A DNA stretch of 64,000 bases from an uncultured Salinicola sp. (GTDB lineage Bacteria > Pseudomonadota > Gammaproteobacteria > Pseudomonadales > Halomonadaceae): NCBI GenBank assembly GCA_913044205.1, contig CAJWNC010000010.1:1768-65767 (forward strand), given 5' to 3'. Positions 19,263 through 31,766 of the stretch are shown here, piece after piece. A model generated the notes under the pieces. The model worked only from the letters and a program-made list of their open reading frames with translations. It ran no database searches and had not been told where the DNA came from. The position numbers were made by a program, and so were the translations under genes. How positions within the stretch are numbered: position 1 is the stretch's first letter; every line of letters begins with the position of its first letter.

Positions 19263-21352
19263 GTTGCCGACCGTCGACAACGCAGCCGAATCGTGGGGCG
19301 AGCCCCGGCTCGCAGGGCGCGGACCAGTTCTCGCTGGCCCTGGATGGCGACGACGCCCCCATGTCGCCGACCGCGGCCGAGGCCGGCGCGCTCAGCCGTG
19401 ACACCCTGCTGGCGGCGCTGTCGCTATGGGTGGCGCTGGGCTGGCTGCGCCAGTTGGACCGCCACTTCGCGCTCTTTCTGCTCGAACGCGATCCCGCCGC
19501 CGATCCGCTGGTCGGCCTGGCTGCAGCGCTGGTCAGCCATCAGGTGGGCCGGGGCCATGTCTGCCTGTCGCTCTCCCGGGTGCTGGACGCACCACGCTCC
19601 GCGCTGTCGTTGCCGCCCCTGGAGAACGAGGGCGAGAACGAATCGGCGGAGGCGGTGGTGCTGCCGGAATCCCTGCTCGACCCGGTCACGCCGGCGCGAT
19701 GGTTCGCCGCGCTGATCGGCTCCACCACCGTTGCCGAGGCGACGGCGGCCGAGGGGCTCGCCACACCGCTGGTCGTGGACGGCGACCGGGTCTACCTGCG
19801 CCGGTACTGGCAGGCCGAGAGCGCGGTGGCGGCACGACTGCGCCAGCGTCTGGGGCCGCCGTTGGCGGTTGACGAGGGGCTGTCCACGCGACTGCAGGCT
19901 CTGTTCGCCGGCAATCGGCGCGAGCAGGGCGAACCTGACTGGCAGCGCGTGGCGTGCGCCCTGGCGCTGCGGCAGCGGCTGACGATCATCTCCGGCGGGC
20001 CGGGAACCGGCAAGACCACCACCGTGACTCGCCTGCTGGCGCTGCTGCAGGAGCAGTCGCTGTCGGGCGAGGGCGAGCCGCTGCGGATACGGCTGGCCGC
20101 GCCCACCGGCAAGGCGGCCGCCAGGCTATCGGAGTCGATCGCGGGAGCGGTCGGCCGGCTGGAGGTCTCCGACGCCGTGCGCGCCGCCATACCCCAGGAG
20201 GCGCAGACGCTCCACCGGCTGCTGGGGGCGCGCCCGGACACGCGCCACTTCCGCCATCATGCCGAGGCGCCGCTGAGCCTCGACCTGCTGGTGGTGGACG
20301 AGGCCTCGATGGTCGATCTCGAGATGATGGCGGCGCTGCTCGATGCCATGCCGGCGGAGGCGCGCCTGATCCTGCTTGGCGACAAGGATCAACTGGCCTC
20401 GGTGGAGGCGGGCTCGGTGCTGGGCGATCTGTGTGCGGGGGCCGGCGACGCCGGATACTCCGAGGCGACTCGCGACTATCTCCAGGCGATCGCGGGCGAG
20501 CCGTTGCCCGTTGCCGCCGAGACCAATCCGCTGGCCGATCACGTGGCGATGCTGCGCCGGAGTTTCCGCTTCCGGTCGGACAGCGGCATCGGGGCTCTCG
20601 CCAGGGCCGCCAACGCCGGCGATGGCCGCGACTTCACGCGGCTGTTGAAATCGGGTTTCCAGGATGTGGAGACGCTAGACATCGACGCGGCGGCATTCGA
20701 GCGGGCCGTGGTGACAGGCTACCGGCCGCTGTTCGAGGCGCTACGTGGCGGGGCGGACGTGGCATCGATTCTTGCCCTGCAGGGCCGCTTCCAGGTGCTG
20801 TGCGCCCTGCGCCGCGGGCCCTGGGGCGTCGAGGGGCTGAACGATCGCATCGCCCGGGCGCTGTGGCAGCAGGGCTGGATCTCGCGCACCGATGGCTGGT
20901 TCGCCGGCCGCCCGGTGATGGTGACCCACAACGACCCCCAACTGGGGCTCTACAACGGCGACCTGGGGCTGACGTTGGCCGATGACGCCGGCCGGCTGCG
21001 GGTCTGTTTCCCGCAGGGTGACGGTATCCGCCAGGTACTGCCGTCGCGGCTCGATGCCGCGGCGACGGCATTCGCGATGACCGTGCACAAATCCCAGGGA
21101 TCGGAGTTCGATCACGTCCTGTTCGCACTGCCGGCGCGGGCCAATCCCATCGTCACCCGGGAGCTGATCTACACTGGCATCACGCGAGCCCGCTCGCGGC
21201 TGACGCTGGCGCTGGCACAGGGTGGCAACGACGAGCGGACGTTACGCGAGGCCATCGCCCGGCAGGTGGTCAGGGACAGCGCGATCGCGGAGCGGCTGCT
21301 GGGTCTGCCAGGATCATCCGTGCCAAGGGATTCGTCAGGGAGTGAAACATGA
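19259..21352 (+). CDS. recD: Exodeoxyribonuclease V alpha subunit RecD
   Basis: SF1 helicase motifs GGPGTGKTTTV, VVDEASMVD, TVHKSQGSEF; follows recB with an ATGA overlap. Confidence 0.9.
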   Translation: MSCRPSTTQPNRGASPGSQGADQFSLALDGDDAPMSPTAAEAGALSRDTLLAALSLWVALGWLRQLDRHFALFLLERDPAADPLVGLAAALVSHQVGRGHVCLSLSRVLDAPRSALSLPPLENEGENESAEAVVLPESLLDPVTPARWFAALIGSTTVAEATAAEGLATPLVVDGDRVYLRRYWQAESAVAARLRQRLGPPLAVDEGLSTRLQALFAGNRREQGEPDWQRVACALALRQRLTIISGGPGTGKTTTVTRLLALLQEQSLSGEGEPLRIRLAAPTGKAAARLSESIAGAVGRLEVSDAVRAAIPQEAQTLHRLLGARPDTRHFRHHAEAPLSLDLLVVDEASMVDLEMMAALLDAMPAEARLILLGDKDQLASVEAGSVLGDLCAGAGDAGYSEATRDYLQAIAGEPLPVAAETNPLADHVAMLRRSFRFRSDSGIGALARAANAGDGRDFTRLLKSGFQDVETLDIDAAAFERAVVTGYRPLFEALRGGADVASILALQGRFQVLCALRRGPWGVEGLNDRIARALWQQGWISRTDGWFAGRPVMVTHNDPQLGLYNGDLGLTLADDAGRLRVCFPQGDGIRQVLPSRLDAAATAFAMTVHKSQGSEFDHVLFALPARANPIVTRELIYTGITRARSRLTLALAQGGNDERTLREAIARQVVRDSAIAERLLGLPGSSVPRDSSGSET

Positions 21353-22137
21353 GTGTCCACGAGTGGCAGGAACTGACCACGACGGAAATGGCCGGACTGG
21401 TCGACGCGGGGACGGTGGCCGTGCTGCCGCTGGCGGCGATCGAGCAGCACGGCGCGCATCTGCCGCTTTCCACCGATCTGGACATCGGACTGGGCCTGCT
21501 CGAGGCGGCGGCGACAAGACTCGCACCGGACCGGAACGTGATCCTGCTGCCGCCGCTGGCGCTGGGCTCGAGTCTGGAACACGCCGATTTCACGGGGACG
21601 TTGAGCCTGCTGCCGGAAACGGCGATCGCGGTCATCGAGGCGCTGGGCGAGGCGGTGAGCCGCGCCGGTATTCGCCGTCTGGTGCTGTTCAACAGCCACG
21701 GCGGCAACAAGGCGGTCATTGACCTGGCCGCGCTCAAGCTGCGGGCGAGGCACGCCATGCTGGTGGTCAAGGCCAACTACTTCCGCTTCACGCCGCCGGC
21801 GCAGACGCTGCCCGCCGAGGAACTCCGCCATGGCCTGCACGGCGGCGCGCTGGAAACGTCGATGATGCTACATCTCGCCCCGGACAAGGTTCGGGTTGCC
21901 CGGCTGGCCGATGCGGTCTCCGAAGGGCGAATCCGCGAGCAGGCCGGATCGACCCTGGGCCCGGAGGGGGATGCCGGCTACGCCTGGATGGCGCAGGATC
22001 TGCACGCCAGCGGGGTGACTGGCAACGCGACCCTGGCCGACGCCGAGACCGGGCGTCGGCTTGTCGATCATTTCGGCGCCCGGCTGGCGCAGGTGATCGA
22101 GGAGGCGGGAGCGTTCGATCTCGACACCCTGCGTTGA
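21349..22137 (+). CDS. Creatininase (creatinine amidohydrolase) family metal-dependent amidohydrolase
   Basis: LPLAAIEQHGAHLPLSTD and NSHGGN motifs typical of the family; ATG overlaps the recD stop (ATGA at 21349-21352). Confidence 0.8.
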   Translation: MSVHEWQELTTTEMAGLVDAGTVAVLPLAAIEQHGAHLPLSTDLDIGLGLLEAAATRLAPDRNVILLPPLALGSSLEHADFTGTLSLLPETAIAVIEALGEAVSRAGIRRLVLFNSHGGNKAVIDLAALKLRARHAMLVVKANYFRFTPPAQTLPAEELRHGLHGGALETSMMLHLAPDKVRVARLADAVSEGRIREQAGSTLGPEGDAGYAWMAQDLHASGVTGNATLADAETGRRLVDHFGARLAQVIEEAGAFDLDTLR

Positions 22138-22208
22138 CGCCATCCGGCGTCGGGGTGACGGGGTGCGTCTCCCGAACGCCGATGGTTGCGGCGACGATTG
22201 GGTGAGGC

Positions 22209-23348
22209 TCAGCGCGCCACCGGACGCCGGAAAGGCGTGGCCGACTCCTTCTCGCCGTCTTCGAGAACCTCTTCCAGCCAGTGGCCGGCGCGCTTGGCCT
22301 TGGCGTCCAGGTAGCGTCGGTTCTGCTTGGTCAGCTTGCCGTAGACGCCGCGCCGGTTGACCACCTCGACGCCGCCCTGGTCCATGGCGGCGATCTTCTC
22401 GGGGTTGTTGGTCAACAGTTCGATCCGCGCGATCTCCAACTGCTCGAGCATCTCCAGCGCGACTTCGTAGGTTCGCTCGTCCTCCCCGAACCCGAGTACC
22501 TGGTCGGCGTCGACCGTGTCCAGGCCGCCATCCTGCAGGGTATAGGCACGCAGCTTGTTGGCCAGCCCGATACCCCGGCCTTCCTGGGCGAGATAGAGCA
22601 GCACGCCGCCGCCGCGTTCGTCGATGGTGCGCACGCTCTCGCGCAGCTGCTCGCCGCAGTCGCAGCGCAAGCTGCCGAACAGATCGCCGGTGAGGCAGGC
22701 CGAATGGAGACGCACCGGCACCGCATCGCTCCATTCGCGGCGATCGCCGATCACGATCGCGATGTGCTCGCGCATGCCGTCGGCCTCCCGGAACATGACG
22801 AATTTCGCGCGTTCGGCGTGGGACAGCGGGATCTCCGCGTCACTGGTGCGCTTGAGGAAGCGTGACCGGCTTTCGGAGTAGGCATCGATCTGCTCGGCGG
22901 CGACCGCCAGAACGGTGCCCTCCGCGACCAGCGCCTCGACCTGGGCGCGCTGGGCGTGGCTGACCTCGGCGACCACGGCCGCGGGGATCAGCAGGCCGAT
23001 TCGCATCAGATCCAGCGCCGCCTCGCTTGCCGGATCGGCGGCGACGGGCTGGCGATCCACGGGCAACCGCTGCGTTTCGTCACTGGCCCAGGCGACGATG
23101 GCGTGGGCGCCGTCGGCGGGGGCGACCGGCACCAGCCCCACGCGCGGGCCGAAGTCGATGCCCAGCCGCGCCAGGCGGTGGCGGGTCAGCGCCAGTGCGG
23201 CCGGGCCGCCGGCCAGCGCCGGCAGTGCCGCCAGCGCGTCGTCGTCGCAGCCCTCGAGCGGGTGGACCACCACGTCGCCGCTGGGGGCACGCACGAGAAC
23301 CGGGAGGCCGCGTCGCAGATCGAATATCGCGCGTTCTACCTGTCGCAT
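22209..23348 (-). CDS. GTP cyclohydrolase II with about 170-aa N-terminal domain of unclear function
   Basis: C-terminal half VRLHSACLTGDLFGSLRCDCGEQL...EGRGIGLANKLRAYTLQDGGLDTVDA matches RibA; AAGGAG lies 6 nt upstream of ATG 23348. Confidence 0.85.
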   Translation of the reverse strand: MRQVERAIFDLRRGLPVLVRAPSGDVVVHPLEGCDDDALAALPALAGGPAALALTRHRLARLGIDFGPRVGLVPVAPADGAHAIVAWASDETQRLPVDRQPVAADPASEAALDLMRIGLLIPAAVVAEVSHAQRAQVEALVAEGTVLAVAAEQIDAYSESRSRFLKRTSDAEIPLSHAERAKFVMFREADGMREHIAIVIGDRREWSDAVPVRLHSACLTGDLFGSLRCDCGEQLRESVRTIDERGGGVLLYLAQEGRGIGLANKLRAYTLQDGGLDTVDADQVLGFGEDERTYEVALEMLEQLEIARIELLTNNPEKIAAMDQGGVEVVNRRGVYGKLTKQNRRYLDAKAKRAGHWLEEVLEDGEKESATPFRRPVAR

Positions 23349-23505
23349 GATCGTCTCCTTATCCTGTCGTCCATGATCAGTCTCATCTGTGATCGCTATC
23401 CGTGATTGGCACCCATGACCGGCGTGAAAGAGCGGCGAGGTGAAACGGAATGACGGCGCTCACCGCCGAACGCTCTCCGCCAAGGGCGATCTTTGTTACG
23501 CTGTG

Positions 23506-24429
23506 ATGCCGTCTGGCCAAGGAATGACCGTGACTGCCTCGTCCGATAATCCCGCTCATGCCGTTACACCCACCGTGTCCGCGCCCCAGGCCTGGCGCTG
23601 GCTTCGCCAGGTGGCGGCCCTGACCCGTGACGACACCTTCGACGGTACCGTCGTCGATGGGCATCATCGCCTGGAAGTCGACGACGCCGGCGACTGGCGC
23701 TGCAGCCATCCGGTCGACGAGGAGGCCGCGCAGCTGCTGTCGATCTGGTTGCCGTGGTGCACCGCGGCGTTGCTCCGGGGGCCACGTGTCATCGCCCAGT
23801 TCGGCCAGAGCCTGGACGGTCGCATTGCGACGGTCACCGGTGCTTCCCACTACGTGACCGGACAGCAGAGCCTGGTCCACCTGCATCGGATGCGGGCGCT
23901 GGTCGACGCGGTCGTGGTCGGTGCCGGTACGGTCGATGCCGACGATCCGCAGCTGACGGTGCGCCATGTCGAGGGCGACAACCCGCTGCGGGTGGTGCTC
24001 GACCCGCGGGGCCGGGTGCCGGCCGACCGCAATGTCTTCCGCCAGCCGGCGGCGCCGACCTGGCACCTCGTCAACCAAGGTGTCGAAGGCCATGGGCTTG
24101 CGGCGCATGTCAGCGTCAAATCGCTGCCGCAGGGGGCGGCCGGCGTCGATCCCGCCAGCGTTCTCGCTGTGCTGGCCGAGCAAGGCCATCGTCGGATCCT
24201 GATCGAGGGTGGCGGGCTGACGATCTCCCGCTTTCTCGAGGCGGACTGTCTCGACCGATTGCACAGCGTGGTCGCACCCATGCTGATCGGGTCCGGCCGT
24301 CCGGCGCTGACGCTGCCGGAGATCGAGACGCTGGAGGTGGCGCTGCGACCGGCCTGTCGCCATTTCCGCCTCGGCCAGGACATGCTGTTCGATCTCGATC
24401 TGCGCGATAGAACTCCATCGGCCTCCTGA
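23506..24429 (+). CDS. RibD C-terminal-domain reductase (diaminohydroxyphosphoribosylaminopyrimidine reductase-like; no deaminase domain)
   Basis: FGQSLDGRIA...VVVGAGTVDADDPQLTVR...ILIEGGGLT motifs. Start ambiguous: ATG 23506, ATG 23524, or GTG 23530, which has AAGGA 6 nt upstream. Confidence 0.75.
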   Translation: MPSGQGMTVTASSDNPAHAVTPTVSAPQAWRWLRQVAALTRDDTFDGTVVDGHHRLEVDDAGDWRCSHPVDEEAAQLLSIWLPWCTAALLRGPRVIAQFGQSLDGRIATVTGASHYVTGQQSLVHLHRMRALVDAVVVGAGTVDADDPQLTVRHVEGDNPLRVVLDPRGRVPADRNVFRQPAAPTWHLVNQGVEGHGLAAHVSVKSLPQGAAGVDPASVLAVLAEQGHRRILIEGGGLTISRFLEADCLDRLHSVVAPMLIGSGRPALTLPEIETLEVALRPACRHFRLGQDMLFDLDLRDRTPSAS

Positions 24430-24431
24430 TC

Positions 24432-25421
24432 TCATCCGGGATGTCCCTCCGCTGCCATCTTGCGGCGAACCGAGGCTGCCCGGCTCGCACGCCGGTCCCA
24501 CAACAGCACTCCCAATCCCGGCAGGCTGGCGGCGAGCACGAGCAGGCCGTAGGCCACTGAGAGCGCGACTCCCTCCTGGGCCGGCAGGCCGGCCAGGGGC
24601 CAGATCACTGCGGCGGCCCCTTCCCTTAGCCCCCAACCGGCGACGGTCAGGGGGATCGCCATGGCCATCAGCAGGGGCGGGATCAGCGGCAGCAACTGCG
24701 GGATCGGCCGCTGGAGGCCGAGGGCCTGGGCGGCGCAGAGAAAGACGGCGACGTAGGTGGCGGTCACCAGCAGCGAGCTGAGCAGTTGGGCGGGCCACAC
24801 GGATGCCGTCAGCAACGCCCGCCTGATGTCCTGGCCGAAGGTCGCCAGGGCCGTCCAGCGCCACCGCCTCGATACGCCGATGACGATGCCGACCAGCAGC
24901 AGTGCCGCCAGCAGAAGCCACGTCAGGGTCGTCGCCTGGGCTTGCCACGCCCGGGCGATGCCGTGGCGTAGGTCCGGCGAGAGACAGATGGCGGCGACCG
25001 CCACGAGCAGCAGCGCCACCTGTCCGGAGGCGCGCTCGATGATCACGGCGCGAACCGCCGGCCCCGATGCCGGGGGGTGGCCGCCACCGGAGTGTGTCCG
25101 GGTATTGCCGTGGCGCCAGGCTCGGGCGGCGTCTCCCAGGACGCCGCCCGGCAGCACCTGGTTGAGGAAGGTGGCCAGATAGTATTCGCGGATGGCCACG
25201 GGCCACCGCAGCGCGATGCCGATCCGGTGCGCCGTCATCCGCCAGCGCCAGGCCGAGATCGCGACCTGGGGAATGCCGAGCAGGACCGCGACCGCGACCC
25301 AGGCCGGCGACAGCGCCATGAGCCGTTCCAGCAGCTGGCCGGTATCCAGTTTCCACGCCAGTAGGCCCAGCAGCGCCAGCGTCACGGCCAGCCGCAGCCA
25401 GGGCGACAGCCACCGGTTCAC
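24432..25421 (-). CDS. Flippase-like / lysylphosphatidylglycerol-synthase TM-region family membrane protein
   Basis: 329 aa, about 8 TM segments; N-terminus MNRWLSPWLRLAVTLALLGLLAWKLD resembles the UPF0104 family; GTGA overlap with the upstream methyltransferase stop. Confidence 0.55.
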   Translation of the reverse strand: MNRWLSPWLRLAVTLALLGLLAWKLDTGQLLERLMALSPAWVAVAVLLGIPQVAISAWRWRMTAHRIGIALRWPVAIREYYLATFLNQVLPGGVLGDAARAWRHGNTRTHSGGGHPPASGPAVRAVIIERASGQVALLLVAVAAICLSPDLRHGIARAWQAQATTLTWLLLAALLLVGIVIGVSRRWRWTALATFGQDIRRALLTASVWPAQLLSSLLVTATYVAVFLCAAQALGLQRPIPQLLPLIPPLLMAMAIPLTVAGWGLREGAAAVIWPLAGLPAQEGVALSVAYGLLVLAASLPGLGVLLWDRRASRAASVRRKMAAEGHPG

Positions 25422-26344
25422 GCTCGCGCTCCCGAGGGCGTTCCGCCGGTCGGGGTCGCCAGCAGATCGCGGTGACCCACGGTCAACGTCGCCCGCTCAC
25501 GCCGCAGATCGTCGAGACGGCGGGCATGCCAATGGTCGACACGGTCCCGCTGCTGCGGCAGTTGCTCGTGAAGCGCCTTGCGCCAGCCGGCCATCAGCGC
25601 CTCGGCGAGAGGCAGCGATTCCGGCCCGAGCCGCCAGGGGGACGCGGCTTCACGGATAAGGTAGCCGCGGCGGTGGAAGCTCTCGCGAAGCCGTCGGGGA
25701 GCCTCGCTGCCCACCGCCGGGCCGCCCCCCTTGTCGCGATGCTGGTGGGCCTGGAGCGCGGCGAGCATGAAGCGGTCGTCGTCGCCGTAAAGCGCGCTGC
25801 CGCCGGCATCGTGGAAACGGATCAGGCCATCGATACTGAGGGCGAACAGCACCGCACAGCCGCTACGCTGGCAGGCATCGGCCAATGCCTCGATATCGGC
25901 GGCCGTCAGCAGGTCGAACAGCGCCGAGGCGGTGACCAGGTCGGCGCCCTCCAGGCCGTGCTCCCAGGCCGCCGTCAGGCTCAGTTGGTCGGTCTCCAGG
26001 TGGATCGGCTGGCCGTCGGCACTCGACAGCGACTCGCAGCGAAGTCGGGCCTGGGCCAGCAGCCCGGCGTCGTGGTCGATGAGTCGCCAGGACTGGGCGC
26101 CCTGCAGCCGCGGTGCCAGATAGCGCAGATTGGAGCCGCTGCCGCAGCCCAGGTCGACCACGCTGCGTGGTGTCTCGAGCGACCGGGCCTCGCGCGGTGG
26201 GTGCGCCGCGGCGCGGCGCGTCAGCCACTGATCCACGGCGTGGGTGAGCTGGGCATCGCGCGCCCTGTGATCGGCGGGCTCCCTCAGCGTCAGCCATTGA
26301 TCGCTGAACAGCGCGTCGGTGGCGGGTAGCTGCGACATCGGCAT
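25418..26344 (-). CDS. Class I SAM-dependent methyltransferase
   Basis: Motif I VVDLGCGSGSNLRYL; start at ATG 26344 (MPMSQLP...) forms an ATGA overlap with the glycosyltransferase stop. The tracked ORF extends 182 aa further upstream inside the GT gene and that extension is rejected. Confidence 0.75.
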   Translation of the reverse strand: MPMSQLPATDALFSDQWLTLREPADHRARDAQLTHAVDQWLTRRAAAHPPREARSLETPRSVVDLGCGSGSNLRYLAPRLQGAQSWRLIDHDAGLLAQARLRCESLSSADGQPIHLETDQLSLTAAWEHGLEGADLVTASALFDLLTAADIEALADACQRSGCAVLFALSIDGLIRFHDAGGSALYGDDDRFMLAALQAHQHRDKGGGPAVGSEAPRRLRESFHRRGYLIREAASPWRLGPESLPLAEALMAGWRKALHEQLPQQRDRVDHWHARRLDDLRRERATLTVGHRDLLATPTGGTPSGARA

Positions 26345-27408
26345 CAGCGCGTTGCCTCTGTCATCTTCGAGCGTGTCAGGGCCTGGCCGAAGGCGGCGGC
26401 GGCGGTGTGCCAGTCCGTCAGGGTCTCGCGGCACGTTCTGGCCCCTGTCCGGTAGCGCTGGTAGCGCTCCGAATCCTCCAGCATGCGTTCGAGTGCATGG
26501 CGTAGCGCCGCGACATCGCCCGGCGGCACCTTGATGCCGGCGGTGTCTGGCAGCGTATGGGCCAGGGCGCCTCCCGTCGTGGTCACTACCGGCAGGCCAT
26601 GGGCGAGCGCTTCGGTGACGACCATGCCGTAGCCCTCGTAGTGGGAAGGCAGCACGAAGAGATCGGCTTGACGATAATGCTCGGCCAGGCGCTCGGCGGG
26701 TTGGGAGCCCAGCAGTCGCACGCGTTCGCCCAGCTGGTGTTCGTCGATGGCCTCGCGCACCTTGGCGACGTAGGCGTCGGCCCGATCCAGCGCGCCGATC
26801 AGATCGCATCGCCACGGCAGCGCGGTCAGACCCGCCAGCGCCTCGACCAGCAGATCCTGGCCCTTGCGCGGTGTCACCGTCGCAATGCACAGCAGGCGAG
26901 GGGTGCCACTGCCGTCGCCGCTCGCCAGTGGGCCGGTCTGGACGCCGGGCTCGATGACGGCGATCTTGTCGGCCGGCACATCGAAGTCGCGAAGCCGACG
27001 GGCGGTATAGACGCTGGTGACGATGACGCTCGCGGCTGCCGCCAGGGCGCGGGTCTCGCTGACGCGGAAGCGCTGCTGTTCCGGGGCGCCCAGGCCGGTC
27101 TCGTCGGCGAGTGGATGGTGCACCAGTGCGGTGATCGATAGCCGCGACGCGTGACGCTCGACGATGGCCGGCAGCCCGCCCATGGCGAGCCCGTCGATCA
27201 CGGCCCGGCTGCCGTCCGCCAGGGCGGTCAAGGCGCAGTCCAGGGCGTGGGAGGCGACGGCATCCGGCTCGGGAAAGCGTCCCTCGAGCCCGATGACGTC
27301 GATGCTCCAGCCTGCCGCGCGCAACGCTTCGACGATTCGCGCATCGTAGACGTAGCCGCCGGTCAGTTGGTCGGGGTTTCCGGCGACGATGAGGGTGAAG
27401 TCGCTCAT
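26344..27408 (-). CDS. Glycosyltransferase, GT-B fold (family 4/GT1-like)
   Basis: C-terminal donor-binding region [28 protein letters not shown] (E-x7-E type); ATGA overlap with the upstream PTPS-like gene. Confidence 0.8.
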
Positions 27409-27803
27409 AGTCCCCCTTCGTAGCTTGCCCAGGCCACGTGGGACTCGTGCAGGGTCACGGTCAAGGCGGTGAGGTGGCGGCCGCCGTCACCCAGTTCACC
27501 CTCGCGAATGGCGTGGGAGAGCCGGTCGAAGACGACCTTGGCCATGAATTCGGTGGTGGTGTTGCGGCCCTTGAACTCGTCGACATCGTCAAGGTTGCCC
27601 AGGGTGAATTCACCGAGCACGCGTTTCAGTGTCTCGCTGGCCAGACCGATATCGACGACGAGATCGTCCTGGTCGAGCTCGGGGCGCTTGAAGGTGGCGT
27701 CGACCACGTAGGTCGCACCGTGCAGCTTCTGCGCCGGTCCGAAAGTCTCGCTGTTGAAGCTGTGGGCGATCATCATGTGATCGCGAACGGTCAAGCTGAA
27801 CAT
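27405..27803 (-). CDS. 6-pyruvoyl-tetrahydropterin synthase (PTPS/QueD) fold protein, non-canonical active site
   Basis: 132 aa from [16 protein letters not shown]...[10 protein letters not shown], a PTPS-like layout; AAGGAG lies 8 nt upstream of ATG 27803. Confidence 0.7.
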
Positions 27804-27927
27804 GTCTCTCGCTCCTTGATGAGTCGGCCTGGTGGGCGGCCGGTGCCGAACTTGCGTCCTGCTGTCCCTGGCGAATCCCCCCGGTGGCGAGCGCGACACC
27901 GGGGCGGTGTGATGAGATTACGTGGCG

Positions 27928-28899
27928 TCAGCCGTAACGGATGCGCTGGCAGAGCGTGTCGTCGTCACGCTGGCTCAGTCGCTTGAGGGTCTCGGGCAGA
28001 TCCCGGAAATGGCTCTCCCCGCTGATCAGCACGTCCAGGCAGTCGTGATCGAGCAGCGCCAGCGCCAGGGTGAGTCGCCGCTTGTGATTCCAGCGCGGAC
28101 GATGCCCGGGCGACACGCTGCCGACCTGGCTCGATCGCAGCGTCAGGCGACGGGCGTGAAACGCCTCGCCGAGCGGCAGATTGACCTCGCGGCTGCCGTA
28201 CCAGCTCATCTCGAGCACGGTGGCCTCGAACCCTGCCAGTGAAAGCGCGCTTTGCAAGCCGGCATCCGATGCGCTGGCATGCACCACCAGATCCTGTTCG
28301 GCCTCGGCGGTCTCGGGGGTGTGGAAATCCACCCCCAGCGCCTCGCCGAGAAAGCGCTTGCGCTCGTCGATATCGATCAGTTGGACGTGGGTCCCGGGCA
28401 GTCGGGCGCAGAGCCAGGCCACCAGGGCGCCGACCACGCCAGCGCCGACGACGCTGATCCGGTCGCCGATGCCTGGTGCCGCGTCCCACAAGGCGTTGAG
28501 CGCCGTTTCCATGTTGGCGCCGAGTATCGCGCGCTGCGGGGGTACGCCGGGCGGCAGCGGCACGACATCCCCGATGCCGACACGGTAGTGGGTCTGGTGA
28601 GGGTGCAGGCAGTAGACGTATCGCCCGTGCCAGTCGTGCGCTCCCTGTTCGACGACGCCGACATTGGAGTAGCCGTATTTGACCGGGCCGGGAAACTCGC
28701 CGCTTTGAAAGGGGGCCCGCATTCGCTGGTATTCGCTCGCCGGTACCTGGCCGTTGAAGACCAGGGTCTCGCTGCCCCGACTGATGGCGGAGTAACAGGT
28801 GCGGATCATCAAGTCGCCGCTGACACTCAGCTCGGCCTGGCGAATTTCGCCGTTACCGTTGCCGAGAGACCAGAAGGCATGAGCGTAAGGCGTCGTCAT
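27928..28899 (-). CDS. Medium-chain (zinc-type) alcohol dehydrogenase-like oxidoreductase
   Basis: 323 aa from MTTPYAHAFW; Rossmann motif VVGAGVVGALVAWL mid-protein; MDR-like architecture; first gene of the minus-strand operon. Confidence 0.65.
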   Translation of the reverse strand: MTTPYAHAFWSLGNGNGEIRQAELSVSGDLMIRTCYSAISRGSETLVFNGQVPASEYQRMRAPFQSGEFPGPVKYGYSNVGVVEQGAHDWHGRYVYCLHPHQTHYRVGIGDVVPLPPGVPPQRAILGANMETALNALWDAAPGIGDRISVVGAGVVGALVAWLCARLPGTHVQLIDIDERKRFLGEALGVDFHTPETAEAEQDLVVHASASDAGLQSALSLAGFEATVLEMSWYGSREVNLPLGEAFHARRLTLRSSQVGSVSPGHRPRWNHKRRLTLALALLDHDCLDVLISGESHFRDLPETLKRLSQRDDDTLCQRIRYG

Positions 28900-29254
28900 T
28901 GCGATATCCGTTCCTTGATGACAGATCGGGATGGCGGTTCGTCGTCCTGCTGAGAGTATGGCAGAGTGTGACGAATTAGCATTGTACAAATGGTGTACAA
29001 GAAGAGATCTAAAAACAAGATTACTTCGAACCGATGGCGGTGCCGGCCATTCGCCGGCCCCTGACGAGCGATGGAGAGATCGGCCAATTACCGGCGTTGC
29101 TCGCCCCGCCGATCGCCGCAATGACCGGCAATTCTCGCAAATCGGTCAAACTGCATCCAAACTTGTACGGGCAGCGTATCGGTTGGAGGGCCTCGTTACG
29201 ATCTGGCGTCACGGCTGGTCGAGGAGCGAGCCATCATTAGGGAGGAAGTCGCCG

Positions 29255-30016
29255 ATGCGACACTCATCGACACGTATCTCGGCAGCGGCTCTCCGCCGGG
29301 TCGGATCCCTGCGCGGCTGGGTCGATATGGCGGCGGGCCTCGCGCTGGTCGCCCTGCTGACCGAGTGGGTGCACTGGGCATTCTCGGCGCCTTCGGGCCT
29401 GCGTTTCACGGCCGGCGGCATCTACGTGGCGATCGCCACGGCAGTGCTCTGGGCCTGGCCAGCCTCGCGGCAGGGCCTCGGCTGGGCCAACCGTGTCACG
29501 CTGCTGCGCGCAGCGCTGATCGCGATCGTTGCCGGCGTCGTGGTATATCCAGACTTCATCCAGCGCCATGCCGAGGGCATCGCGGCGCTATCGCTACTGG
29601 CGCTGGCACTCGATGGCATCGATGGTTGGGTGGCGCGGCGAACCGGGTCGTCCAGCGCCTTCGGGGCGCGGTTCGACATGGAGCTGGATGCGTTCTTCAT
29701 CGTCGTGCTGTGCATGGCGTTGATCGCCCTGGACAAGGTGGGTGCCTGGATCCTGCTCATCGGGCTGGCGCGGTATGCCTTCCTGGTAGCTGGCGTCTAC
29801 TCGCCGTGGCTCAATCGCTCCCTGCCCGAGAGCTATTTTCGCAAGACGGTCTGCGTCTGGCAGGTGTCGACGCTGATGGTCTGCCTGCTTCCCTTCGTCG
29901 AACCCTCATGGGCTACCGCTTTCACGCTCGTGGCGGCGGCGCTGCTGGTCCTCTCCTTTGGCCGGGACATCGTCTGGCTCTGGCGCCATCGACCCGTTGG
30001 CGACATCGAGCTCTGA
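29255..30016 (+). CDS. CDP-alcohol phosphatidyltransferase family membrane protein
   Basis: Full signature D-G-x2-A-R-x8-G-x3-D-x3-D present as DGWVARRTGSSSAFGARFDMELD; GGAGGAAG SD upstream of ATG 29255. Confidence 0.78.
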   Translation: MRHSSTRISAAALRRVGSLRGWVDMAAGLALVALLTEWVHWAFSAPSGLRFTAGGIYVAIATAVLWAWPASRQGLGWANRVTLLRAALIAIVAGVVVYPDFIQRHAEGIAALSLLALALDGIDGWVARRTGSSSAFGARFDMELDAFFIVVLCMALIALDKVGAWILLIGLARYAFLVAGVYSPWLNRSLPESYFRKTVCVWQVSTLMVCLLPFVEPSWATAFTLVAAALLVLSFGRDIVWLWRHRPVGDIEL

Positions 30017-30074
30017 GCGGCGTCGCTGTCTCTCCCGACCCCTGTTGGGTCGATTTTCCCGCAAGGAGGCTGTC

Positions 30075-30683
30075 ATGAGATCCGCCCGGTTGAACATCCT
30101 TCCCGCTCTGGTGCTGCTGGCGCTGGCATCGTCGCCGGCAAGTGCCGAGCCGCAGCGCTTCGAGATCGATCCCGAACACTTCTCCATCGCCTTCATGGTG
30201 GATCATCTGGGCTACGAAAACCTGCTCGGACAGTTCCTGGAGGGCGAGGGTACCTTCGTCTACGACCGTGAGACGCAAACGTTGGTCTCGGCGGAGGTCA
30301 CGATCCGGTCCGACAGCGTCTTCACCAACCTCGACGCTCGCGATGAACACCTGCGGGGGCGCGACTTTCTGGACGCGGACGAGCATCCGCGGATACATTT
30401 CGTTGCCACGGATTTCGAGCCGTCGTCTCCGACGACCGGTACGCTGAATGGCGAGCTCACGCTGCTGGGCCGTACCGAGCCGGTCACGCTGGACGTCACG
30501 TTGAACCAGGATGCGGTATATCCGCTCGGGCACGGGCAGCCCACGCTGGGACTGTCCATCCGGGGCGCTCTCGATCGCAGTGACTGGGGGATGGATTACG
30601 GCGTCGACAACGGGATGGTCGGCGACCATGTGACCCTGATCTTCGAATTGGAAGCGGTACAGCGGGAGACCCTTTCCAGATGA
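30075..30683 (+). CDS. YceI family periplasmic polyisoprenoid-binding protein
   Basis: Signal peptide MRSARLNILPALVLLALASSPASA, then FEIDPEHFSIAF...HLRG.DFLD typical of YceI; AAGGAGG SD. Confidence 0.85.
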   Translation: MRSARLNILPALVLLALASSPASAEPQRFEIDPEHFSIAFMVDHLGYENLLGQFLEGEGTFVYDRETQTLVSAEVTIRSDSVFTNLDARDEHLRGRDFLDADEHPRIHFVATDFEPSSPTTGTLNGELTLLGRTEPVTLDVTLNQDAVYPLGHGQPTLGLSIRGALDRSDWGMDYGVDNGMVGDHVTLIFELEAVQRETLSR

Positions 30684-30743
30684 GATGGCGGCTTCACGAG
30701 CACGAGCTCTTCATTACCGACCCAACCATTGTCAAGGATCGTC

Positions 30744-31766
30744 ATGGCGCAGGAAGCCTTCACCCTCGTTGGCGAGCGAATCGAACCCGGCACCCGCCGG
30801 CAGGTCGACGTTCCGGTGGCCAAGCTCTATACCCACGCGCCGATGCACATTCCGGTGGAGGTGGTGCACGGTCGCCAGCCTGGTCCGGTGTTGCTGGTCT
30901 GCGGCGCGATTCACGGCGACGAGCTCAATGGCGTCGAGATCGTCCGCCGGCTGCTGAGGTTGCCGAACCTGTCGCGACTGCGCGGGACGCTGATTGCCGT
31001 GCCCGTCGTCAATGTCTTCGGCTTCGTCCAGCAGTCGCGCTACCTGCCGGACCGGCGCGATCTCAATCGCTGCTTTCCGGGGAGTGAAGGCGGGTCGCTG
31101 GGCTCTCGCATCGCCGCACTGATGCGGGAAGAGATGGTCGACCGGGCCACCCACATCATCGACTTGCACACCGGCGCCATTCACCGCACCAATCTGCCCC
31201 AGATTCGCTCCCAACTGCGCCAGAACCGCGAGACCCAGGCCATGGCCGAGGCGTTCGGCGTGCCGGTGATCCTCAACGCGGAGCTGCGCGAGGGGAGCCT
31301 GCGCGAGTACGCGCAGAATCGTGGCGTTCCCGTGCTCACCTACGAGGCCGGCGAAGCGCTGCGCTTCGACGAGTGGGCGATCGCGCCGGGCGTGAGGGGA
31401 ATTCGGCGCGTGATGCGCCTGATCGGCATGCTGCCGGCCGACAACCGCCGGCGCATGCCGCCTCCCGCCGAAGTGGCCAACGGTTCGAGCTGGGCCAGGG
31501 CGCCGATCGATGGCATTCTGCGGCCGCGTGTCAGGCTGGGGGCGCGGGTCGCCAAGCATCAGTCGCTGGGGGTGGTGGCCGATCCCTTCGGCAACGACGA
31601 GGCGCCGGTGGTCGCCAGCGCCGATGGCATCGTCATCGGCATGAGCAACCTGCCGCTGGTCAACGAGGGCGAGGCGCTGTTCCACGTCGCCCGTTATCAG
31701 GAGATCGACGATGTCGAGAACGCGGTGGAGAGCTTCCAGTCGCGTTACGAGACGACCGGCTTCTAG
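30744..31766 (+). CDS. Succinylglutamate desuccinylase/aspartoacylase (AstE/AspA, M14-like) family protein
   Basis: LLVCGAIHGDELNGVEIV zinc-site motif and DLHTG; ATG 30744 preceded by AAGGA. Confidence 0.75.
   Translation: MAQEAFTLVGERIEPGTRRQVDVPVAKLYTHAPMHIPVEVVHGRQPGPVLLVCGAIHGDELNGVEIVRRLLRLPNLSRLRGTLIAVPVVNVFGFVQQSRYLPDRRDLNRCFPGSEGGSLGSRIAALMREEMVDRATHIIDLHTGAIHRTNLPQIRSQLRQNRETQAMAEAFGVPVILNAELREGSLREYAQNRGVPVLTYEAGEALRFDEWAIAPGVRGIRRVMRLIGMLPADNRRRMPPPAEVANGSSWARAPIDGILRPRVRLGARVAKHQSLGVVADPFGNDEAPVVASADGIVIGMSNLPLVNEGEALFHVARYQEIDDVENAVESFQSRYETTGF

Follow-up and report, generated by a model that had tools for sequence, protein, structure and literature searches.

What brings enzymes that open GTP into one gene neighbourhood with a glycosyltransferase, a methyltransferase and membrane proteins of the phospholipid head-group type is the question raised by a locus in the 64-kb window analysed here, the window being the whole stretch of DNA from an uncultured Salinicola sp. 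The genes concerned form a cluster of ten, at positions 21349-30683, arranged around a small T-fold protein that we assign to the PTPS-IV subfamily. Our analysis suggests that these genes work as one functional unit, and we propose, tentatively and with somewhat less than even confidence, that they would turn GTP into a 2-amino-pyrimidine or pterin-like polyol that is remodelled, glycosylated, methylated, linked by a phosphodiester to diacylglycerol and exposed on the periplasmic face of the membrane. The first step of this scheme is predicted from strong homology, the later ones from family membership and gene association.

Conservation of the gene cluster

Relatives of the cluster were sought in one genome per species with a 10-sequence PTPS-IV alignment as query, and at least 591 loci with a PTPS-IV relative were recovered. 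The best 80 of these (at least 591) loci were searched with the ten window proteins and make up the synteny set; presence and absence were counted in the loci at least 16 kb long, 71 in number, and neighbour families were defined by de novo clustering of all open reading frames (ORFs) from 82 loci of about 20 kb each. The 71 long loci span at least five phyla, and so do the occurrences of the full gene set among the best 80. The oxidoreductase, the PTPS-IV protein and the GT4 glycosyltransferase are each encoded in 71 of 71 loci, followed by the methyltransferase (69/71), the RibD_C reductase (63/71), the CDP-alcohol (CDP-OH) phosphatidyltransferase (60/71), the flippase-like protein (55/71), GTP cyclohydrolase II (GCH II; 48/71), the creatininase (32/71) and finally YceI (22/71), whose gene follows the CDP-OH gene and is confined to Proteobacteria. 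Order and orientation are kept, with near-constant offsets from the PTPS gene in Gamma-, Beta- and Alphaproteobacteria, Actinomycetota, Gemmatimonadota and Acidobacteriota; the oxidoreductase gene lies directly upstream of the PTPS gene in 84 of 84 loci, in 60 of 71 loci across phyla the CDP-OH gene keeps one and the same place, from which it diverges from the core operon, and the glycosyltransferase and methyltransferase are a single fused polypeptide in 17 of 79 loci. The order in Thauera runs YceI, CDP-OH transferase, oxidoreductase, PTPS, glycosyltransferase-methyltransferase, flippase-like protein, RibD_C, GCH II and creatininase, and that of Marinobacter is the same as far as RibD_C. Some copies are plasmid-borne, namely in Agrobacterium tumefaciens, Methylosinus trichosporium OB3b, Thiodictyon, Rhizobium and Streptomyces. 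As a side observation, the PTPS-IV gene of the Streptomyces linear plasmid (L086:9001-9399) is solitary, without its usual neighbours.

Because of this cross-phylum synteny and of the glycosyltransferase-methyltransferase fusion, the cluster is best read as one functional unit and not as a chance neighbourhood. The original prediction had already supposed that the genes act together but had drawn the unit at eight; the conserved unit has ten, as the creatininase and YceI genes accompany the cluster in other genomes. One could argue that all of these proteins, viewed singly, come from common families, and that housekeeping riboflavin genes (ribA and a ribD fragment) merely lie beside an ordinary envelope glycolipid or phospholipid operon. 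We find such a chance adjacency scarcely credible. It is contradicted by the synteny, GCH II and RibD_C being linked to the PTPS-IV operon across phyla, in 48 and 63 of the 71 loci, and not unlinked in related genomes as housekeeping copies would be; the RibD_C protein comes without a deaminase, the GCH II, a long form set apart from the usual ones, scores below the RibA and RibBA cutoffs, and the locus shows no FMN riboswitch. A neighbourhood-network study of 2017 found the same GCH II/RibD_C link (PMC5445326).

Gene layout in the window

The features of the locus, with coordinates in the window, are as follows.

21349-22137, plus strand: creatininase-family amidohydrolase, putative formamidase (Pfam Creatininase, E=2e-64)
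22209-23348, minus strand: long-form GTP cyclohydrolase II (Pfam GTP_cyclohydro2, residues 167-332, E=1e-56)
23440-24429, plus strand: RibD_C-only pyrimidine reductase (Pfam RibD_C, residues 115-303, E=4e-41)
24432-25421, minus strand: stand-alone MprF-type flippase-like protein (Pfam LPG_synthase_TM, E=3e-36; TIGR00374 flippase-like domain)
25418-26344, minus strand: class I S-adenosylmethionine-dependent methyltransferase (Pfam Methyltransf_25 and Methyltransf_12)
26344-27408, minus strand: GT4 (GT-B, retaining) glycosyltransferase (Pfam Glycos_transf_1, E=5e-32)
27405-27803, minus strand: PTPS-IV T-fold protein, SCO6650 orthologue (Pfam PTPS, E=3e-23)
27928-28899, minus strand: MDR-fold NAD(P)-dependent oxidoreductase (AlphaFold2 model and Foldseek)
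28900-29254, no strand: divergent intergenic (promoter) region between two operons, about 355 bp
29255-30016, plus strand: CDP-alcohol phosphatidyltransferase-family membrane protein (Pfam CDP-OH_P_transf, E=1e-15)
30075-30683, plus strand: YceI-family periplasmic lipid-binding protein with signal peptide (Pfam YceI, E=5e-38)

The eight genes first described, with their domain assignments and start/stop overlaps, were all recovered from Pfam and NCBIfam matches and by reading the junctions in the sequence. The PTPS stop overlaps the glycosyltransferase start (ATGA, 27405-27408), the glycosyltransferase stop overlaps the methyltransferase start (TGATG, 26342-26346) and the methyltransferase stop overlaps the GTG start of the flippase-like gene (GTGA, 25418-25421); these four genes are translationally coupled. 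The oxidoreductase gene is separated from the PTPS gene by 124 bp, without overlap, and an AAGGAG ribosome-binding site (RBS) stands ahead of the PTPS start. At the other end of the operon, the flippase-like gene (stop at 24432) and the RibD_C gene (stop at 24429) converge with 2 bp between them; the RibD_C start may be GTG 23440, ATG 23506 or ATG 23524, the choice being uncertain. The CDP-OH gene most likely starts at 29255, behind the RBS GGGAGG, rather than at 28931, and the YceI gene follows 58 bp past it with an RBS of its own (AAGGAGG) and the N-terminus MRSARLNILPALVLLALASSPASA. The ATG of the creatininase gene overlaps the recD stop (ATGA, 21349-21352), and the gene may be co-transcribed with recBCD in this genome, though elsewhere it accompanies the long-form GCH II. 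Between the two operons (28900-29254) we recognised no ORF start with an RBS, and no Rfam match, sigma-70 consensus or terminator; within the 64-kb window no paralogue of any cluster gene was found elsewhere.

The GC content around the cluster is 0.65-0.71, and several long ORFs are spurious or over-extended, as is typical of high-GC DNA: 23383-25413 (minus strand), the upstream part of 25418-26890 (minus strand) and 28931-29254 (plus strand). One of them, 676 aa long and antisense, spans the RibD_C and flippase-like genes, and mechanical ORF calls over-extend several true genes at their 5' ends.

The GTP end of the proposed pathway

The GCH II of the window has the zinc motif Cys-x10-Cys-x-Cys (HSACLTGDLFGSLRCDCG, corresponding to E. 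coli Cys54/65/67) and keeps Tyr at the position of E. coli Tyr105 (LRAYTLQD). It scores 336 bits against NCBIfam PRK08815, under the cutoff of 464, and falls below the RibA and RibBA equivalog cutoffs as well. Ahead of the catalytic domain stands a degenerate N-terminal one of about 165 aa; a functional DHBP synthase was considered for this N-terminal domain and rejected on a weak DHBP_synthase match (E=0.11, 28 residues), and the extension would be at most a degenerate DHBP-synthase remnant. Three forms of GCH II can be told apart among the loci. The long form, with the conserved extension of about 165 aa and Tyr, is that of Proteobacteria, Gemmatimonadota and Acidobacteriota, and the creatininase gene adjoins it in 26 of 27 loci, the single exception being the Agrobacterium plasmid. 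A short form with Tyr is found in Micromonospora and its relatives, where the creatininase gene is never present. A short form with Met or His is found in Amycolatopsis, Actinophytocola, Actinomadura and Salinactinospora, always with the creatininase gene and with RibD_C missing. The long-form GCH II of Halomonas halmophila (L010:14312-15382) is peculiar in having Ile (KLRAIGLQ) where the other long forms have Tyr. The S. coelicolor paralogue SCO6655, in which Met (Met120) takes the place of this Tyr, is said by Spoonamore and Bandarian to halt at the formylated intermediate.

These associations bear on the creatininase. The creatininase-family protein BrbF of Sinorhizobium and Brucella is a proven formamidase for AFRPP, the formylated product of GTP ring opening, and ArfB acts likewise in archaea (PMC9478397). 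By analogy, the creatininase of the cluster is a putative AFRPP formamidase, because it belongs to the same family as BrbF and ArfB and travels with the long-form or Met/His GCH II.

In the RibD_C protein no deaminase domain was detected; it scores 142 bits against TIGR00227 and 107 bits against the archaeal reductase model TIGR01508, near genuine riboflavin reductases. As this reductase has no deaminase partner, the 2-amino group of the pyrimidine is probably retained, and it would match the face that the pocket of the T-fold protein is expected to recognise. Domain searches of the cluster proteins revealed no pyrimidine deaminase, lumazine synthase, riboflavin synthase or convincing DHBP synthase. 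FMN riboswitches are common in bacterial riboflavin operons, though not universal; an Rfam scan of 21000-31000 up to E=1 returned none, the only match being a spurious miRNA. That the locus is not a riboflavin operon, as had been predicted from the gene content, is well borne out.

Another destination for the pyrimidine has been put forward. Zallot et al. 2016, citing unpublished work, stated that PTPS-IV is involved in the synthesis of coenzyme F420, a deazaflavin, and GCH II with a non-deaminating RibD_C reductase does correspond to the archaeal-type early steps towards the F420 pyrimidine precursor. An F420 step carried out by PTPS-IV and its neighbours nonetheless seems very improbable to us. 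The cluster has no deaminase for the uracil precursor that FO synthase requires, and F420 synthesis has no use for the GT4, methyltransferase, CDP-OH and flippase-like genes; the recurrent neighbour families identified in the 82 loci, in which no direct search for these genes was made, include no CofG/H/FbiC, CofC, CofD or CofE. The hosts Halomonadaceae, Marinobacter and Thauera are not known for F420.

The PTPS-IV protein

Over its full length the PTPS protein of the window is about 67% identical to SCO6650 of Streptomyces coelicolor (E=5e-52), whose structure (PDB 3D7J, "uncharacterized protein SCO6650") is its sole close solved relative; identity reaches 98% with S. acroporae LMG 28587 and 92% with other Salinicola. 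It carries the FGPAQ motif, near-invariant among the orthologues, of which one, from Thauera, bears the annotation "PTPS-like type 4". In the literature FGPAQ is described as the signature of the PTPS-IV subfamily of COG0720, whose neighbourhood includes PF00925 and PF01872 (PMC5445326). On these sequence grounds we place the window protein in PTPS-IV, and because of this placement and of the likeness to SCO6650 the window cluster can be considered the proteobacterial form of a cluster that had been partly noticed.

Among 32 diverse orthologues Gly22, Asp51, Leu71 and Glu85 are invariant, and His14, His28 and an ESH motif nearly so. The catalytic Cys is missing and the third zinc-binding His is Ala, two of the three zinc His positions being kept; the window protein has none of the motifs CxxxHGH, CxxxxxHGH or ExxHGH that, with three zinc His, mark PTPS-I, PTPS-II and PTPS-III, and it scores 38.6 bits against the QueD model TIGR03367, for a cutoff of 89. 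Judging from the PTPS/QueD motifs, the Asp-His of the catalytic triad is apparently replaced too, and Glu85 (in TTTE) presumably corresponds to the Glu by which T-fold enzymes hold the 2-amino-4-oxo-pyrimidine face of pterins. The SCO6650 structure reportedly has no zinc and a pterin-like pocket, and the protein no PTPS activity (work of Spoonamore and Bandarian, 2006/2008). In RefSeq, PTPS-IV proteins are entered as "6-carboxytetrahydropterin synthase" and carry a queuosine GO term despite the missing QueD motif, which is probably an over-annotation.

On a side note, proteins with PTPS-IV domains in triple tandem exist (375-855 aa; P0121, P0131, P0133, P0138 and P0154), and one sequence cluster includes the haptophyte algae Emiliania huxleyi and Gephyrocapsa oceanica, by which the subfamily extends to eukaryotes.

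Oxidoreductase, glycosyltransferase and methyltransferase

The AlphaFold2 model of the oxidoreductase (pLDDT 88) has a clear MDR fold, and Foldseek matches it at TM 0.7-0.8 to L-idonate, glucose and sorbitol dehydrogenases and also to AcuI/YhdH-type reductases. In 30 orthologues, mapped by motif inspection rather than structure-based alignment, the zinc ligands show no conservation: Leu mostly occupies the position of the Cys, and an invariant Tyr77 stands where the His of GHE is expected. On this mapping the protein falls outside the zinc-dependent MDR alcohol dehydrogenases, which are marked by catalytic zinc ligands (Cys, the His of GHE, Glu/Cys) and a structural zinc lobe. The enzyme may oxidise a polyol carbon or reduce a C=C or C=N bond, and what had been called a dehydrogenase may then be a reductase. 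We also tried to read direction and substrate from the structure and gave this up, as polyol dehydrogenases are mixed with enoyl/acryloyl reductases among the matches. RefSeq calls the protein a "zinc-binding alcohol dehydrogenase" although conservation of the zinc ligands is nil; this name, like the QueD/queuosine one, is probably wrong for proteins of the cluster.

The nearest solved relatives of the GT4 protein are sucrose-phosphate synthase, MshA, PimB' and BshA, with the tetrahydrobiopterin glucosyltransferase matched weakly. Of these relatives, MshA, BshA and sucrose-phosphate synthase use small polyol phosphates or acids as acceptors, and PimB' uses phosphatidylinositol. The methyltransferase model (AlphaFold2, pLDDT 91.5) matches only generic class I methyltransferases in Foldseek (TM 0.35-0.55), and a substrate class was not to be drawn from such matches. 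A role in anti-phage defence, evoked by a "GT4-conflict" Pfam match, was discarded: PADLOC gave one generic methyltransferase match (E=1e-6).

The membrane end and its neighbours

Three components of the window belong to the membrane or envelope, namely the CDP-OH transferase, the flippase-like protein and the YceI protein with its signal peptide. The CDP-OH protein, a multi-pass membrane protein, has the signature DxxDGxxARx8GxxxDxxxD intact (LDGIDGWVARRTGSSSAFGARFDMELD), as originally predicted, and lies under all equivalog cutoffs (pgsA 32/109, pssA 25/107, PIP synthase 21/170 and ClsA 22/240 bits). Since no cytidylyltransferase accompanies the cluster, CDP-diacylglycerol would be the most economical donor for this enzyme. 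The flippase-like protein (329 aa) corresponds to the transmembrane module of MprF without the aminoacyl-phosphatidylglycerol synthase domain, the bifunctional MprF model giving 23.6 bits against 600.

Other genomes add further genes to this end. A protein of 530-590 aa that joins a transmembrane region to a sulfatase-family domain recurs in about 36 loci across phyla (for example L010:16188-17903, L031:6144-8495 and L087:3205-4791); its gene lies directly upstream of the CDP-OH gene in Micromonospora and, on the same strand, directly downstream of the YceI and CDP-OH genes in Variovorax. The protein matches Pfam Sulfatase at 28 bits and has no C/SxPxR motif, and its E257, S303, H415, D490 and H491 are invariant; sequence and profile searches found no solved homologue. 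The invariant Glu, Ser, His and Asp-His resemble, and may be the counterparts of, the metal and nucleophile residues of LtaS and EptA. In its domain make-up the protein is like LtaS, EptA and OpgB, which pass phospho-head groups from phospholipids to envelope polymers. The periplasmic glucan genes mdoH/mdoG are adjacent in at least 10 loci of several independent lineages (the Methylosinus OB3b plasmid, where mdoH and the core operon are transcribed away from each other, Marinobacter, Vreelandella, Gemmatimonadota and Defluviicoccus; L085:6079-7881, L003:17197-20399, L024:16963-18948). In Agrobacterium, Thiodictyon and four Gemmatimonadota loci (for example L087:12011-12544, L088:11528-12085 and L036:16113-16622) a cytochrome b561-like gene lies within or beside the cluster; in E. 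coli, YceI and cytochrome b561 share an operon. An FkbM-type methyltransferase is a neighbour in 19-22 loci. For the sulfatase-family protein, YceI, cytochrome b561 and MdoH alike the place of action is the membrane or the periplasm, and the membrane or lipid end of the pathway gains support from these accessory genes in other genomes.

Two other readings have to be weighed against these data. In the first, the core (GCH II, RibD_C, PTPS-IV, MDR oxidoreductase, GT4 and methyltransferase) would make a soluble glycosylated, methylated pterin or aminopyrimidine that serves as a cofactor, pigment or protectant, in the manner of the cyanobacterial pteridine glycosides or of plant vicine, and the membrane genes would export it or have a separate, co-regulated role. 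The oxidoreductase-PTPS-glycosyltransferase-methyltransferase core is indeed universal, whereas the CDP-OH gene is missing from 11 and the flippase-like gene from 16 of 71 loci, and L039 and the Methylosinus locus L085 have no lipid genes; the GT4 protein resembles the small-molecule enzymes MshA, BshA and sucrose-phosphate synthase and, weakly, the biopterin glucosyltransferase, and a preprint derives vicine, a pyrimidine glucoside, from GTP by way of GCH II. However, CDP-alcohol transferases make phosphodiesters and do not export, the CDP-OH gene keeps its divergent position in 60 of 71 loci across phyla, and the LtaS/EptA-like, YceI, cytochrome b561 and MdoH proteins are all of the membrane or periplasm. 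We hold a soluble product to be unlikely, though it deserves serious consideration.

In the second reading, the phospholipid would be a carrier only, whose phospho-head group is donated in the periplasm to osmoregulated periplasmic glucans or another envelope polymer, as phosphatidylglycerol serves OpgB and LtaS and phosphatidylethanolamine serves EptA and OpgE; the Salinicola gene for the transferase would lie in another part of the genome. The sulfatase-family protein of about 36 loci, with its LtaS/EptA-like invariant residues and without C/SxPxR, speaks for such a donation, as do the mdoH or mdoG genes adjacent in Marinobacter, Vreelandella, Gemmatimonadota, Defluviicoccus and Methylosinus. 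Yet neither the transferase nor an mdo gene lies in the 64-kb window, the role of the transferase is deduced for a protein with no detectable solved homologue, and Actinomycetota carry the transferase although they are not known to make periplasmic glucans. A role as carrier only strikes us as distinctly unlikely.

Proposed pathway

The lipid-anchored product that we favour could arise as follows. GCH II would open GTP to 2,5-diamino-6-ribosylamino-4(3H)-pyrimidinone 5'-phosphate, the creatininase would strip any formyl group that is retained, and the RibD_C reductase would give the ribityl form without deamination, the 2-amino-4-oxo face being kept. PTPS-IV, which retains the Glu but neither the zinc site nor the Cys/Asp/His triad, may then remodel the side chain or close a ring together with the MDR oxidoreductase, a pair that would parallel PTPS and sepiapterin reductase in biopterin synthesis. 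The GT4 enzyme might add a sugar and the methyltransferase a methyl group, as in the synthesis of pteridine glycosides. The CDP-OH enzyme is predicted to join the product to diacylglycerol by a phosphodiester, from CDP-diacylglycerol; the MprF-type protein could flip the lipid to the periplasmic leaflet, where YceI would handle it, and in other genomes an LtaS/EptA-like transferase or cytochrome b561 may fill the role of YceI.

Several observations weigh against this proposal. Each tailoring step is deduced from family membership. The CDP-OH enzyme stands outside the characterised subfamilies, its best solved relative being cholinephosphotransferase at 24 bits; the 64-kb window has no LtaS/EptA-like, cytochrome b561 or MdoH gene; and some loci, such as L039, consist of the oxidoreductase, PTPS, glycosyltransferase and methyltransferase genes only, so that the product of the core may be soluble. 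The flippase-like gene is missing from 16 and the CDP-OH gene from 11 of the 71 loci. In the window, GCH II retains its Tyr, for which direct deformylation is predicted, and this would leave the creatininase without an obvious substrate. Reduction of C1' by RibD_C followed by re-oxidation of the chain would moreover be an unparsimonious route. The original prediction of a GTP-derived head group destined for a lipid or for export is reasonable and gains support at both ends of the pathway; the chemistry proposed for it stays conjectural.

A more specific form of the proposal may be envisaged, possible but rather doubtful in our eyes: a new class of phospholipid whose head group, a redox- or UV-active, glycosylated and methylated pterin or ribityl-diaminopyrimidine derived from GTP, would be displayed on the periplasmic leaflet, where YceI and cytochrome b561 would serve it and, in many lineages, the LtaS/EptA-like protein would transfer it to envelope glycans. 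If true, a nucleotide-derived heterocycle would join the head groups of bacterial lipids or the substituents of the envelope. The link to phospholipid head-group genes puts a definite hypothesis in the place of a vague "unknown pterin pathway".

Comparison with known systems

The cluster had been presented as an orphan, and this description can be kept in part. Parts of it are said to have been noticed since 2006, the T-fold protein SCO6650 to have been crystallised in 2008 and PTPS-IV to have been named in 2012. The AGeNNT study of 2017 placed PF00925 (GCH II, mislabelled FolE2) and PF01872 (RibD_C) near a PTPS-IV cluster of 561 sequences (PMC5445326), and a 2026 review attributes to one of the three RibA paralogues of S. 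coelicolor "a completely new function unrelated to flavin biosynthesis". Our literature search, whose coverage extended neither to Phillips 2012 nor to the Spoonamore papers, found no report that names the product of the cluster or mentions the lipid genes. The cluster is accordingly a partly documented "known unknown" and not an unnoticed orphan: the subfamily, its link to GCH II and RibD_C and the SCO6650 structure were already described, while no identified product was found, and the combination of genes with its tie to phospholipid head-group machinery matches no characterised pathway that we found.

With the phospholipid head-group systems (PgsA/PIP synthase, PimA, MprF and OpgB/LtaS/EptA) the cluster shares matching roles, in its CDP-OH, GT4 and MprF-type transmembrane proteins and, elsewhere, in the sulfatase-family protein, but no cluster protein reaches a characterised equivalog cutoff, and we know of no precedent for a GTP-derived alcohol among phospholipid head groups. 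With the PTPS/QueD proteins of COG0720 (PTPS-I QueD, PTPS-II and PTPS-III) the window protein shares the T-fold and the conserved Glu85, whereas their Cys motif is replaced by FGPAQxLHGA. The early riboflavin/F420 pathway of archaea and fungi has in common with the cluster the GCH II chemistry, an ArfB/BrbF-like creatininase and a reductase that acts without prior deamination; in contrast, the genes of the cluster sit among tailoring and membrane genes. The closest arrangement is that of SCO6650-SCO6655 in S. coelicolor, SCO6655 being a GCH II paralogue: actinomycete loci share the succession oxidoreductase, PTPS, glycosyltransferase, methyltransferase, flippase-like protein and GCH II, to which the proteobacterial version adds a long-form GCH II with Tyr, the creatininase and YceI, whereas some actinomycete versions have a Met/His GCH II and no RibD_C. 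Finally, the synthesis of pteridine glycosides, among which cyanopterin has an O-methyl sugar, offers the same succession of a T-fold enzyme, a reductase and a GT-B glycosyltransferase with optional methylation; unlike it, the cluster begins with GCH II and not GCH I, uses an MDR in place of an SDR enzyme and a PTPS protein without the catalytic residues, and adds genes for coupling to a lipid.

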